From positions 1-25,364 of IMG/VR virus record IMGVR_UViG_3300009080_000053: a DNA stretch of 25,364 nucleotides; one strand, written 5' to 3'. The DNA comes from a virus (Duplodnaviria; Caudoviricetes). Shown here one piece after another: positions 13,998 to 22,943 of this stretch; positions within the stretch are counted from its first letter, which is position 1; every line of letters starts with the position of its first letter. The notes below the pieces were generated by a model. The model worked only from the letters and a program-made list of their open reading frames with translations, had not been told where the DNA came from and did no database searches. A program made the translations under genes and the position numbers.

Positions 13998-14026
13998 ATT
14001 ATACCCGTAGAATAAGCATCTGTCAA
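13998..14026 (-). promoter_or_regulatory. consensus sigma70 promoter (leftward)
   Basis: Minus strand reads TTGACA-17 nt-TATAAT, a perfect consensus. Confidence 0.8.
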
Positions 14027-14115
14027 GTTTTATTTCATTTATTTGCAGGCCTTCCTTCTATATACTATATATAGGAACAATATAAGTATATTATGAAAAA
14101 AAGTTATAAAAAAAC

Positions 14116-14144
14116 TTGACAAACCTCCATATTACGGGTATACT
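14116..14144 (+). promoter_or_regulatory. sigma70 promoter for the packaging/structural operon
   Basis: TTGACA-17 nt-TATACT, 35 nt upstream of the terS ATG. Confidence 0.85.
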
Positions 14145-18996: not shown

Positions 18997-19054
18997 TTTA
19001 ATGAATCTCAAAGAACAAGCAATAGAAGCCCGTCAAAGAGTAGAGGAAAAGTAA
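18821..19054 (+). CDS. small helical protein overlapping the portal 3' end
   Basis: AGGAG RBS, ELYRKQG..SL..L..L motif typical of post-portal small proteins, and TAATG coupling to the next gene. Confidence 0.7.
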   Translation: MLDKEMANRLGPLVNNSELWGALKEHLNNLRNLELQGLAVATSELELYRKQGKASSLANLMNLKEQAIEARQRVEEK

Positions 19055-21006
19055 TGTCAGCAGTAAGTTTGTTATCAAAAGGAGCAATGAAGCTTTTTCA
19101 TGGAGCTAAGAAAAATTTTGATTCTTTCGATTCTGAGTTTGCAACCGAGACAGCTTTTGGAAAAGGTTTTTCATTTACCCCCGAACAAGACATAGCAGAA
19201 GGATACGCTAATATTACTCCGGCAAAACTTAGAAAGCTTTACGGAAAAGAATATGTAGAAGAAGCCATTGAAAGAAAAAAGGGCGGCACTCCTATTTTAT
19301 ATGAAGTTGAAGCAGATGTAAAAGATAGTGAAATTTTAGTTACTCGCAAAAATTTTAATGAACAAGATAAAGAAGTTCAAAAAAAATTAAAAAAACTAAT
19401 AGACGCAGAAGGATTAAATCTAGAAAAGTTAGATTTAAACAAGCCTAAGTTTTGGAGACAAATACTAAACTTAACAAATAAAGATGCAGATAAACTATTC
19501 ACTAAGTACGGAATTAAGGCTGCGCTAAAAGATGCACAAGATTCTAAGTTAAAACAAGTAGGCGGTAAAATAGAATACACAGTCTACGACCCTAAAGTAA
19601 TAAAAATTAAAAACAAAAAAGTTCTAGAAAGAACTGAAAAAAATAGAGGCGGCGAAATGAAAGTACCTAAACTAAAATACGCAGTAGGCTCAGTAGCTCA
19701 AGCAGCAGCAGAGGGTGCCGATTCATTGTTGTCCGAAGCTCGTAAAGATGTTGTAGCCCAAAGAGGCCCTGAGCCTGCAATGCCCAAAGAAGTAGAAGAG
19801 ATGGCAGAAGCAGTGGCTAAAGTAGAGCCGTCTACGCAAAAAGGAAGTTCAGAAATTGTACAGAAAAACATAAAAGACACTACAAAACTTGTAAACTCTT
19901 TTGAGTTTCAAGGCGGCAATGCAAAAATGGACAAGCAGTTTATTATTGAATCTTTGAGCGAAATATCTGATTCTCCTATTGTTGAGTCCAAGCAGTCTAT
20001 TGCTGAGTTTATTACTGACCTGCACCGTGTACAACTTGAAGAAGAAGCCAAGCCGCTTTTGTCGCCAAAAGATTTTAAAAAGCTTACTAGCTTTGCAGGT
20101 TCCCAAGACCGCTTGGAAAAGAAAGAAGGCGGCGAAGTATCTGACGTAGATAAGTATATTAACTTATTTGGTCAAATGGAACAGTCCATGAGTAAAGCTA
20201 AAACTCAAGAAGAAAAAGATAAAATTTATGAGCGTTGGTCACAAGTTGAGGAATCATTTGACGGTAATATTATTGCTGAAGCTATGGAAAAGATGGACGA
20301 AAGCCGAGAAGGAAAATTCTTAGGTGGGATACTTGGAAGTGTTATAGAAAAAGTAACATCTTCTAAAGGAACTACTACTGAGCCTGTAGGCCAAGAACCC
20401 GAAGCAAGCATAAGCAGTCTTGAAGGCCCCGACCCTATTTCTGCGGCTAATAACGCTCCAATTTCTAATACAGGCTTTGCGGAAGGCGGTTCACTTATGG
20501 CTCCCGATATGCCCGTAGATACTTATGATAATATACCACCAGAGGAAATGGAAGCCGTAAAAGCTACACAGCTTCCAGATGATGAGATGGAAGATGAGTA
20601 TGCCGGATTCGTTCTAGGCGAAGCCCTAAGTACAGAAGACCAAGAATATTTATTAGGCGCTCTCGAAAGTGACGGGCGCTTAGGCGAAATCTTTGATAAA
20701 ATAATGGATATTGCAGGAGAATTTGCAGGTGAAGGAGCCGTTGAAGGCCCCGGCACAGGCACATCAGATTCGATACCCGCAAGGTTGTCGGATGGTGAAT
20801 TTGTTTTCACTAAAAAAGCAACTGACCAAATTGGCACCGACAAGCTTCAAACTATGATGGATGATGCTGAACGTGCTTATGATGGCGGTTTAATGAAAAA
20901 GTACATGGGCGGCAGCATACTTGATGCTTCTGAAGAGCAGTTAGACCCTAATAAAAAGGTTTACAACCAGATGTTAGCGTCAAATGCAATGCCTAGTGTA
21001 CGATAA
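19054..21006 (+). CDS. modular putative virion protein with N-terminal ADP-ribosyltransferase-like domain
   Basis: LFHG...F..F...GKGFSFTP...AEGYA...EYTVYDP (H-Y-E ART pattern) and C-terminal GPGTGTSDSIPARLSDGEFV motif; lies between portal and scaffold. Confidence 0.7.
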   Translation: MSAVSLLSKGAMKLFHGAKKNFDSFDSEFATETAFGKGFSFTPEQDIAEGYANITPAKLRKLYGKEYVEEAIERKKGGTPILYEVEADVKDSEILVTRKNFNEQDKEVQKKLKKLIDAEGLNLEKLDLNKPKFWRQILNLTNKDADKLFTKYGIKAALKDAQDSKLKQVGGKIEYTVYDPKVIKIKNKKVLERTEKNRGGEMKVPKLKYAVGSVAQAAAEGADSLLSEARKDVVAQRGPEPAMPKEVEEMAEAVAKVEPSTQKGSSEIVQKNIKDTTKLVNSFEFQGGNAKMDKQFIIESLSEISDSPIVESKQSIAEFITDLHRVQLEEEAKPLLSPKDFKKLTSFAGSQDRLEKKEGGEVSDVDKYINLFGQMEQSMSKAKTQEEKDKIYERWSQVEESFDGNIIAEAMEKMDESREGKFLGGILGSVIEKVTSSKGTTTEPVGQEPEASISSLEGPDPISAANNAPISNTGFAEGGSLMAPDMPVDTYDNIPPEEMEAVKATQLPDDEMEDEYAGFVLGEALSTEDQEYLLGALESDGRLGEIFDKIMDIAGEFAGEGAVEGPGTGTSDSIPARLSDGEFVFTKKATDQIGTDKLQTMMDDAERAYDGGLMKKYMGGSILDASEEQLDPNKKVYNQMLASNAMPSVR

Positions 21007-21007
21007 C

Positions 21008-21292
21008 AATAAGGCTACCTGTTAGCGCAGCCCCTTATTACTTTAACTTAACCTAGAGGCCACCTTGTAGTATCAAGCCCCGAATGTCTAGCTAACATTT
21101 CGGCTACCTTGAAGAGACGACAAGCCCCAAAAGGAGTGCGACATGACTGACTTACAAGAAATAGAAGAAGAAGCAGCAAACCCATACAACATGAGAAAAG
21201 ATTGGCATGATGAAGATGACAAACCTTTTGAAAGTGCTGATGGCGTTTATTACGAAAAGAAAGCAAAGAAGGCCACCCGAAAGGCCCCTTCT
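21008..21292 (+). promoter_or_regulatory. four copies of a structured RNA motif around the scaffold start (putative translational operator)
   Basis: GG-CYAC-[stem-loop]-CC-CC at 21013-21034, 21058-21081, 21102-21128 and 21271-21288, with different but complementary stems. Confidence 0.65.
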
Positions 21293-21946
21293 GAAGAAGA
21301 GTCCGCTACAGATTACAAGAAGCGATACGATGACTTAAAAAAGCATTACGATACAAAGATTAGTGAGTTCAAGCAAAAAGAGCAAGAACTACAAGCAGAA
21401 GCTCGAATGACACAGCATGTTGAACAGGCCGTTCGTCACGAGGATAACTCTGAAGAAGTTCAAGCTCAAGAGTATGCAGAACAAACAGCCCCTGCTGTAG
21501 AGAACGATACACGACTCTCAGCACTTGATGAACGTGAAGCTAGGATTGCTCGCAAAGAAGCTGAATTAACTCTTAGCTCAGCACATCCTGATTTTGCAGA
21601 TATACGGCAAAGCGATGAGTTTCATTCATGGGCCAAAGCACAGCCAGAGGCTATTCAAGACTGGGTGTATAATAATCCTAATAACGTAAGCTTAGCAGTC
21701 AAAGCTATCGACCTCTATAAACTAGAGTCGGGTTTAAGCTCTCAACCTTCTTCAGGTAAGAAAGTACAGTCGCAATCTATGTCCCCCTCGGCAGCAGATA
21801 TGGTTTCAACTAAAACAAAAACCGTAAATGCAAATGAGCCAAAGGTGTGGACACAACGGGAAATTACTGCACTGTCTATGGTTGAATACGATAAATATGA
21901 AAAAGAAATCGATGCAGCCATAATTGAAGGCAGAGTAGTAGCTTAA
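21143..21946 (+). CDS. capsid scaffolding protein
   Basis: Acidic coiled-coil protein (DYKKRYDDLKKHYD) directly upstream of the major capsid gene, with an AAGGAG RBS. Confidence 0.8.
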   Translation: MTDLQEIEEEAANPYNMRKDWHDEDDKPFESADGVYYEKKAKKATRKAPSEEESATDYKKRYDDLKKHYDTKISEFKQKEQELQAEARMTQHVEQAVRHEDNSEEVQAQEYAEQTAPAVENDTRLSALDEREARIARKEAELTLSSAHPDFADIRQSDEFHSWAKAQPEAIQDWVYNNPNNVSLAVKAIDLYKLESGLSSQPSSGKKVQSQSMSPSAADMVSTKTKTVNANEPKVWTQREITALSMVEYDKYEKEIDAAIIEGRVVA

Positions 21947-21980
21947 ATAACTATTGTCTTAAATAAAAAGGAAAATAATC

Positions 21981-22943
21981 ATGGCTTTTAACCAATCAGA
22001 CCGATATTTCGCAGAAGGTTCTAACAGCAATTTCGGCACAAGCACTAACTTTATGCCTGCCATTTACTCGAAGAAGGTTCTTAACTTCTTCCGTAAAGCT
22101 TCTGTTGCTGAAGCAATCACCAACACTGATTACGCTGGTGAGATTTCAGCGTTCGGCGATTCTGTAAAAATTATCAAAGAACCTGTAATCACCGTTGAGC
22201 AGTATCAACGTGGTGCTGATACTACTGCAACTGCATTGACCGATTCTGAAATTACTCTGGTCGTTGACACAGCTAACGCATTTAAGTTCATCGTAGACGA
22301 CATCGAAACTTCTATGTCTCACGTAAACTTTAAAGAAGTAGCTGCTTCGTCTGCCGCTTACGCTCTGCGTGATGCATTCGATGCTGGCGTACTTGCTGCT
22401 ATGGAAGCAGGCTTGAGTGCTTCTGCTCCTGACCACATCCTTGGCGGTGATACTACTGCTTCAGCGGGTGACGGCGTTCTGTCAGGAACTGACGCAATCG
22501 GTTTGCAAAATGCTAACACTGACCCTCTGGATGTACTGGCTCGCTTGGCTCGTCTGCTTGACGACCAAAACGTACCAGAAGAAGGTCGTTGGGTAGTTGC
22601 TCCTCCTGTATTCTACGAAGAGCTGTCACAGTCTGACTCTAAGCTCTTATCAGTAGATTACAACGGCGGCCAAGGCTCTATCCGCAATGGTCTAGTAAGC
22701 TCTGGCAAGCTGCGTGGATTCAGCATGTATAAGTCTAACAACATGGGTGGTCTTGTCGCTAACGCTGACGGCCTCATCTTGGGCGGCCACATATCTGCGG
22801 TATGTACTGCACAGACTATCACCAGCACTGAGGTCATCCGTGACCCGTCTAGCTTTGGTGACATCTGCCGTGGTCTACACGTATACGGCGTTAAGGTTCT
22901 CCGACCTGAAGCCCTTGTTGGATGCTACTTCAACATTGCATAA
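21981..22943 (+). CDS. major capsid protein (P22 coat-like, HK97 fold)
   Basis: 320 aa; FMPAIYSKKVL...DYAGEI..FGDSVKI, LDDQNVPEEGRWVV and GLHVYGVKVLRPEAL; biased codon usage; AAGGA RBS. Confidence 0.92.
   Translation: MAFNQSDRYFAEGSNSNFGTSTNFMPAIYSKKVLNFFRKASVAEAITNTDYAGEISAFGDSVKIIKEPVITVEQYQRGADTTATALTDSEITLVVDTANAFKFIVDDIETSMSHVNFKEVAASSAAYALRDAFDAGVLAAMEAGLSASAPDHILGGDTTASAGDGVLSGTDAIGLQNANTDPLDVLARLARLLDDQNVPEEGRWVVAPPVFYEELSQSDSKLLSVDYNGGQGSIRNGLVSSGKLRGFSMYKSNNMGGLVANADGLILGGHISAVCTAQTITSTEVIRDPSSFGDICRGLHVYGVKVLRPEALVGCYFNIA

Follow-up and report, generated by a model that had tools for sequence, protein, structure and literature searches.

Why one short, C-rich motif should be repeated four times around the start of a single phage gene, and what it might do there, is the question raised by the window analysed here, a 25,364-nt stretch of a Caudoviricetes virus (Duplodnaviria; IMG/VR record IMGVR_UViG_3300009080_000053, positions 1 to 25,364). 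A search of both strands with the descriptor GGCYAC-stem-CCCC returned exactly four sites (21013, 21058, 21102 and 21271), all of them within 21013-21288, and the same search of 300 dinucleotide shuffles averaged 0.12 sites and never exceeded 3. These are the four sequence units that an earlier note on this DNA had picked out, each where it had placed them.

The head module and its probable scaffolding gene

The minus strand of the window carries a replication module and the plus strand a head module, ordered as the terminase subunits, the portal, a 650-aa ORF, the ORF at 21143-21946 and the major capsid protein. The head genes have their nearest relatives in the Pelagibacter phages HTVC115P and HTVC103P, and also in HMO-2011 and the CRP roseophages. 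HMO-2011-type phages are described as having a DNA polymerase with a partial DnaJ domain and two CXXCXGXG motifs (PMC9038755, excerpt); this mark is absent here, no CXXCXGXG motif being present in the window's 589-aa polymerase. The two modules are separated by a divergent pair of sigma-70-like sites (13998-14144), of which the minus-strand member matches 12 of 12 consensus positions and the plus-strand member 11 of 12. The latter (14116..14144, plus strand), which precedes the terminase small subunit and is recognized by this consensus match only, is a candidate start of the packaging and head operon that carries the element. In the portal-scaffold interval, the 650-aa ORF (19054-21006) has a sub-threshold match to ART-PolyVal (ADP-ribosyltransferase) at its N-terminus and a short C-terminal segment common to tape-measure and endolysin PHROGs, and probably encodes a variable internal virion protein.

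The gene around whose start the motif is repeated (21143..21946, plus strand) encodes a protein of 267 aa in phrog_13678, a family with no named function. The ORF has 5,522 homologs, and matched neither a Pfam entry nor a named PHROG family. Its position, its predicted architecture and weak fold and language-model matches suggest that it probably encodes a capsid scaffolding protein. A structural model built from 71 sequences (mean pLDDT 72, pTM 0.34) has two long helices and a four-helix bundle, together with an N-terminus that is disordered and a small helical domain at the C-terminus, a layout to which that of the P22 scaffold is comparable (bioRxiv 2022.12.13.520362, excerpt). The protein is acidic overall, and its long helix opens with a conserved YKKRY-DL motif, found as [FYW][KE]KRY-DL in 168 of 170 distinct proteins. 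In the nearest named Atlas cluster (score 0.92), PF09306 Phage-scaffold is present in 13% of the members. Foldseek searches of BFVD gave five matches at E <=0.001, all unnamed, below which the named ones are mostly scaffolds (best E 0.0076). Against the PDB, Foldseek found no RNA-binding fold (best E 5.8), and the matches to solved structures amount to coiled-coil noise. Comparison with P22 gp8 detected no sequence homology (hhalign probability 0.3%).

The major capsid gene (phrog_267; 21981..22943, plus strand) follows 34 bases 3' of the scaffold-like gene. A hairpin is predicted over the scaffold stop codon, just 5' of the capsid Shine-Dalgarno sequence (21927-21960); all 28 relatives agree at two four-fold degenerate sites in its 5' arm, the 3' arm, TGTCTT, is largely conserved, and the hairpin possibly couples capsid translation to scaffold termination.

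Fold and conservation of the four units

Unit 1 (21008..21039, plus strand) begins 2 bases past the upstream stop codon and is predicted to fold, as the earlier note had described, into a hairpin in which a single 4x2 internal loop (CUAC 21015-21018 opposite CC 21031-21032) separates a lower stem of 7 bp from an upper stem of 4 bp. It is conserved in relatives, with variable upper stems. Units 2 and 3 are each self-complementary, and can therefore form either two hairpins or pair with one another. The note had taken them as separate hairpins; here the minimum-energy fold and the covariation in 30 relatives both favour one nested hairpin (21052..21134, plus strand), in which copies 2 and 3 pair crosswise, the 5' half of each with the 3' half of the other. 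The two loops of this long hairpin are oppositely oriented, the outer one consisting of CCAC 21060-21063 and CC 21125-21126 and the inner one of CC 21078-21079 and CUAC 21104-21107. At its base, CCU 21052-21054 is predicted to pair with AGG 21132-21134 of the Shine-Dalgarno sequence (SD) of the scaffold-like gene, AAGGAG (21131..21136, plus strand), which is recognized by its sequence and is conserved in the leader alignment.

In the aligned leaders of the 30 relatives, the nested fold leaves 97.8% of the cells paired, and 8 pairs (49 cells) have changed on both sides; the tandem fold, with 91.1% of the cells paired and 0 pairs changed on both sides, was rejected. The covariation score of the nested fold, 0.292 versus 0.099 in shuffles, was reached by 0 of 500 shuffles, and slid controls stayed at or below 0.087. 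Constrained folding gave the nested form the lower energy in all 33 leaders that could be parsed, with more pairs in 31 and an equal number in 2. In three of the relatives (L051, L055 and L058) both strands of the inner helix are altered and the outer helix is untouched. Homologs with compensatory changes thus bear out the claim that an RNA element tied to the start of this scaffold-position gene is conserved and covaries. An additional outer stem proposed for copy 2, CTAGA/TCTAG, is present in the window sequence, but its 3' arm is missing in most relatives. Between the two C-rich loops, 21068-21073 and 21112-21120 form a purine-rich internal loop; its GUA and AGAC are conserved, and its closing pair covaries between U-A and A-U.

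The arrangement of the loops differs among phages. In HMO-2011 and CRP-345 the loops are likewise arranged two-fold, separated by just five pairs, HTVC103P and HTVC115P have tandem single-loop hairpins, and many relatives of HMO-2011 have one single-loop hairpin; the conserved unit is therefore the loop rather than its arrangement. Across six variants of the central helix in the HMO-2011 clade (30 positions), G-U pairs outnumber A-C mismatches by 7 to 1, which favours the sense strand as the one that folds, as RNA. The spacing between loops, counted per strand, is 5-6 bases in the HMO-2011 clade and 14-17 in the window's clade, about one helical turn apart; such a phasing of paired loops is only a hint, coming from two lineages, and four parses of the 'T' group are probably tandem hairpins.

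As a consensus the loop reads G-MYAC/CC-C. Over 74 distinct instances the long strand is CUAC in 54 and CCAC in 20 (AUAC and ACAC occur in other clades), the short strand, for which the descriptor allowed only CC or CA, is CC in 66 and CA in 8, and the upper closing pair is C-G in 45, U-A in 14, U-G, G-U and G-C in 4 each and A-U in 3. The copy number ranges from 1 to 4, and orientation and arrangement vary as freely. The folds themselves are thermodynamically unremarkable, with z values of -0.8 to -1.4 for the unit structures and 0.29 for the whole leader, no more stable than shuffles, so the case for the element is one of conservation and covariation and not of stability.

Unit 4 lies within the coding sequence (21267..21292, plus strand; codons 43-49), with CCAC 21273-21276 opposite CC 21285-21286. 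It had been read as a further 4x2 loop, and this copy is indeed present and constrained, but in the window its lowest predicted energy belongs to a shifted register with a 2-base bulge. The constraint was examined in 28 coding sequences less than 95% identical, out of 61. All 28 have G directly before the loop (codon AAG, CAG or GAG) and a pyrimidine as the third base of the Ala codon, and GCC and CCT are kept in 25 of 25 and 28 of 28, respectively. Outside copy 4, only two of 41 four-fold columns are invariant, both at the 3' end of the gene. In 3 of the 28 sequences ACC..GCC has become ACT..ACC, replacing the C-G closing pair by U-A and the alanine by threonine. Copy 4 thus fixes synonymous sites and covaries at the price of an Ala-to-Thr change.

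Distribution of the loop and its position at the ribosome-binding site

Three protein scans (best 80, 80 and 50 loci) and nine annotated isolates yielded 220 loci with a tblastn match, 214 with an assigned start and 158 unique ones with at least 150 bases of leader. In 152 of these 158 the loop descriptor has a match in the homologous gene's leader, a count of related and redundant loci that are not independent events. Carriers include isolates on SAR11, SAR116, Roseobacter and Sinorhizobium. Around the starts the motif reaches a density of 7.4 per kb (411 matches in 55 kb), compared with 0.065 per kb elsewhere on the same strand (42 in 649 kb) and 0.054 on the other strand (38 in 705 kb). Six leaders were missed by the descriptor. 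Those of Aeromonas phage 1233 and Vibrio phage CHOED have ACAC/CC and AUAC/AC variants in the same place; L205 and L206 lack the loop at the scaffold gene and have it in the capsid leader instead; and the remaining ones, Slicky01 with a 3x1 loop and L167 with a five-base variant, look related by eye only.

A stronger test than these leader counts is a scan of IMG/VR that started from the motif and an SD and used no protein information, listing 120 matches of about 1,800 stretches. Of the matches listed, 84 precede the gene family (72 confirmed by HMM and 12 truncated homologs); in the subset with a stem of at least 4 and a start codon, 76 of 78 are homologs and the other 2 end at the edge of the locus. 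When the A of the loop was changed to T, 0 of 120 listed matches preceded the family. Scans with the AUAC and ACAC variants placed 33 of 38 listed matches and, with a stem and an ORF of at least 60 aa, 27 of 32 listed matches before it.

The element may extend to other scaffold families. An ACAC/CC loop lies at the SD of acidic proteins in scaffold position at three further loci, L771 (1296-2113), L492 (1301-2149; with the near-copy L485) and L559, and none of these proteins matches the HMM of the gene family or the PHROGs. At L771 the following gene encodes a major head protein. The proteins of L771, L492 and L559 may resemble scaffolds of the T7 gp9 type. In a single case, L461, an ACAC variant with a 6-bp upper stem precedes a portal gene; this occurrence and that at L463 may be due to chance. 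Cellular homologs were sought in GTDB with the two-copy pattern, an insensitive scan and a weak test, in which 1 of 120 listed matches (of an estimated ~170) had both helices, within an ORF; the matches are GC-rich coding repeats, and a cellular homolog was rejected. A look at expression gave only small shares in 12 runs, and 4 of these runs yielded nothing but contigs. In an RNA library, one such contig, of a relative less than 90% alike, bridges leader, scaffold and capsid, which is not proof of transcription.

Within the leaders the position of the loop is narrowly defined. For 109 of 122 loci measured, the distance from the end of the final stem to the SD is -3 to +6 bases; for 119 of 133, the CC is found 14 to 26 bases 5' of the start. 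The exceptions are probably upstream units or misassigned starts. For 12 of 14 distinct flank pairs in the window's clade, the base of the long hairpin is able to pair with the first half of the SD, the register shifting among them. The predicted pairing of the SD is moderate (mean 0.58 in the window's clade and 0.44 in the HMO-2011 clade). A conserved structure is hence found at or overlapping the ribosome-binding site, as would be expected of a translational operator.

The loop also occurs before some capsid genes. In the HMO-2011 clade the capsid leader is about 240 bases long, a sigma-70-like site is present in all 62 distinct leaders, and a loose descriptor (UUAC/CC, or CAC/CC reversed) finds the loop in 58 of 62, versus 14 of 62 in the antisense control. 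The phiM6 capsid leader has it as well. Among the short capsid leaders, 0 of 30 in the window's clade and 0 of 17 and 0 of 2 in other groups contain the loop, and 0 of the 120 listed matches of motif and SD precede a capsid gene. The capsid family is common to all carriers checked. In L083 (3710-3949) and its relatives among L092-L170, the capsid leader is long and structured; it includes a sigma-70-like site of its own and a first hairpin, and two copies of the loop lie within a multi-branch structure. The capsid leaders of L205 and L206 have two loops in reversed orientation, and the DNA 5' of the L206 scaffold gene looks tRNA-like by eye.

Possible ligands and related regulatory RNAs

Because the element lies against and partly over the SD, it probably acts at translation initiation. 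Fixed loop bases on changing stems and apical loops, together with the occurrence of both orientations, argue for a protein ligand; the two-fold arrangement of units 2 and 3 suggests that this ligand would be dimeric, and the weak stems would fit a site that needs it to stay closed. The scaffold is the best single guess, since the element follows its gene, the P22 system offers a precedent that includes a role for the N-terminus, and the protein has a conserved basic aromatic motif. The P22 scaffold is described as a monomer-dimer system whose N-terminus is implicated in autoregulation (bioRxiv 2022.12.13.520362, excerpt). The C-rich loop structure around the scaffold ribosome-binding site most probably serves as a translational operator. 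For its ligand, the reading that we tentatively favour, at somewhat less than even confidence and by analogy, is that it would be bound by free scaffold, which would repress its own synthesis. Scaffold not engaged in procapsids, a guess taken from P22, would bind the loops, possibly contacting the RNA through the basic YKKRY that opens the long helix, keep the weak hairpin closed and block ribosome entry, and a shortage of coat protein would lower scaffold synthesis.

Several points weigh against this proposal: the protein is acidic, Foldseek recognized no RNA-binding fold in its model, P22 gives neither homology to the protein nor the full motif, and the predicted pairing of the SD is only moderate. 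The loops in capsid leaders complicate it further: if free scaffold simply repressed the coat, the effect would be counter-productive, and these loops therefore require a second ligand or a second effect. One loop may read the free scaffold dimer with opposite signs at the two genes, shutting the scaffold site and stabilizing or activating the capsid message, where it lies some 40 or more bases 5' of the SD; the module would then measure and correct the scaffold-to-coat ratio during head assembly, and the loop would serve also scaffolds with no detectable homology, such as those of L771, L492 and L559. We regard this as unlikely. The same RNA structure could instead answer to unassembled major capsid protein, which would tune both head genes. 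The shared capsid family and the loops before the capsid genes of the HMO-2011 clade and phiM6, in L205 and L206 the only place where they occur, speak for such a ligand. It is nonetheless improbable, given that the window's clade has four copies at the scaffold start and none in its capsid leaders, that the motif-first scan found no capsid gene among its listed matches, and that the precedent in the literature names the scaffold (bioRxiv 2022.12.13.520362, excerpt).

None of the evidence singles out the scaffold, and another phage protein or a host factor, for instance a ribosomal protein or an RNA chaperone, might bind the loops, possibly as a late activator that opens the SD. The likeness of the loop to the C-loop, an rRNA module, points in this direction, as does its constancy across widely different hosts; in viral contigs, though, the motif is tied to one gene family, and the GTDB scan, insensitive as it is, gave the one match in an ORF, so we consider this alternative doubtful. 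It is also rather unlikely that the loops have no dedicated ligand and act architecturally, through C-loop-like twists or RNA-RNA contacts that would set mRNA stability, processing or a constitutive or temperature-dependent rate of translation. C-loops are indeed architectural (PMC4551918, excerpt), the hairpins are weak, as would be expected of a thermometer, and units 2 and 3 of the window can in principle isomerize between tandem and nested forms. However, conservation extends to the short-strand CC, whereas the bulged bases of a C-loop are non-core, and the free variation in copy number, orientation and arrangement is easier to reconcile with a modular binding site than with a fixed tertiary fold. 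A signal at the DNA level (promoter, operator, packaging or recombination site) or an intrinsic terminator, as a short repeated sequence close to a gene start might suggest, is highly improbable: spacing is variable with compensating stems, G-U is favoured over A-C, and copies are circularly permuted. Two terminator-like scores on the minus strand overlap units 1 and 4, but the sense strand lacks a U-tract and the units show no promoter consensus, and the promoter or terminator reading was set aside on this check.

Wyckoff and Casjens (1985) and Casjens and Adams (1985) reportedly described the autoregulation of the P22 scaffolding gene 8. That gene resembles the one studied here in lying just 5' of the coat gene, in the predicted architecture of its protein and in the expected, post-transcriptional level of control. 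The two proteins, however, lack sequence homology, and in P22 the motif is limited to its 5' half, G-ACAC-C, on a hairpin of 3 bp that has no CC-C partner. In P22 (L090:3865-3885) and IME10 (L796:373-393), G-ACAC-CTC lies on such a hairpin about 25 bases before gene 8, and the surroundings of P22 gene 8 contain no match to the full descriptor. A link to P22 by sequence was rejected, IME10 having the same half-site as P22, and with neither the full motif nor gp8 homology P22 serves as an analogy only. Regulation is demonstrated in P22, whereas the window's phage offers a defined, repeated and covarying RNA site known from sequence only.

Of the known RNA modules the C-loop comes closest in form. 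It is listed as RNA 3D Motif Atlas IL_73276.5, with a long-strand core of C, N and C/A and 0 to 2 bulged bases on the short strand (PMC4551918, excerpt). In a C-loop, base triples arise from non-Watson-Crick pairs (2/6 and 4/7) that cross. The phage loop is likewise an internal loop of unequal strands, the long one rich in C/A and terminating in AC and the short one with two bases; the CAC/CC variant of the capsid leaders has the 3+2 shape, and a 4-base C-loop instance with insertions is mentioned in an excerpt of PMC3273805. In contrast, the scaffold-leader loop has four bases (MYAC), the three-base CAC being found only in HMO-2011 capsid leaders; core position 6 is mostly G (the C-G closing pair, in 45 of 74) where all accepted variants listed in Table 12 of PMC4551918, as excerpted, have A; and the short-strand bases are conserved in the phage loop. 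Since length and closing pair differ, we have not filed the loop as a C-loop.

E. coli thrS contains a C-loop. Its operator places two hairpins 5' of the SD, where the gene's own product binds and the 30S subunit is blocked (PMC3858243, excerpt). Two hairpins upstream of the SD are common to both systems, and in thrS it is the gene's own product that binds them, but thrS relies on tRNA mimicry recognized by a synthetase, and both sequence and protein are unrelated.

The earlier note could name no RNA family for the motif, and Rfam 15, including GP20-a (RF02991) and GP20-b (RF03003), likewise gave 0 matches at the gathering threshold in the window or in 13 related loci; below it there were only two chance matches to snoRNAs (E 2.5 and 5.3). 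GP20-a, GP20-b and the RNAs of Fremin et al. 2023 (PMC10690425, excerpt) are also predicted to be cis-regulatory and lie directly 5' of phage structural genes. Among the latter, DNAVirus_5306, 101 nt long, marine and known from 18 sequences, is given as preceding Phage-scaffold genes in 3 cases (PMC10690425, excerpt). The motif may be one of the anonymous candidates, DNAVirus_5306 or another, in the excerpted catalogue of PMC10690425 or in that of PMC5737381. A literature search, in which such anonymous catalogues were compared by description only, found no description of the motif and no defined RNA site for P22 scaffold autoregulation.

The element is thus real, family-wide, uncatalogued in Rfam and corrected in its fold, and in kind a candidate phage structural-gene operator. 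With about 12 fixed bases, and with compensatory variants that occur naturally, it offers a minimal candidate site. Its carriers are very abundant marine phages as well as cultured phages of Sinorhizobium, Vibrio and Aeromonas, so that the putative binding and repression are directly testable, and the element would serve as a marker with which unannotated scaffold genes can be located from RNA alone.
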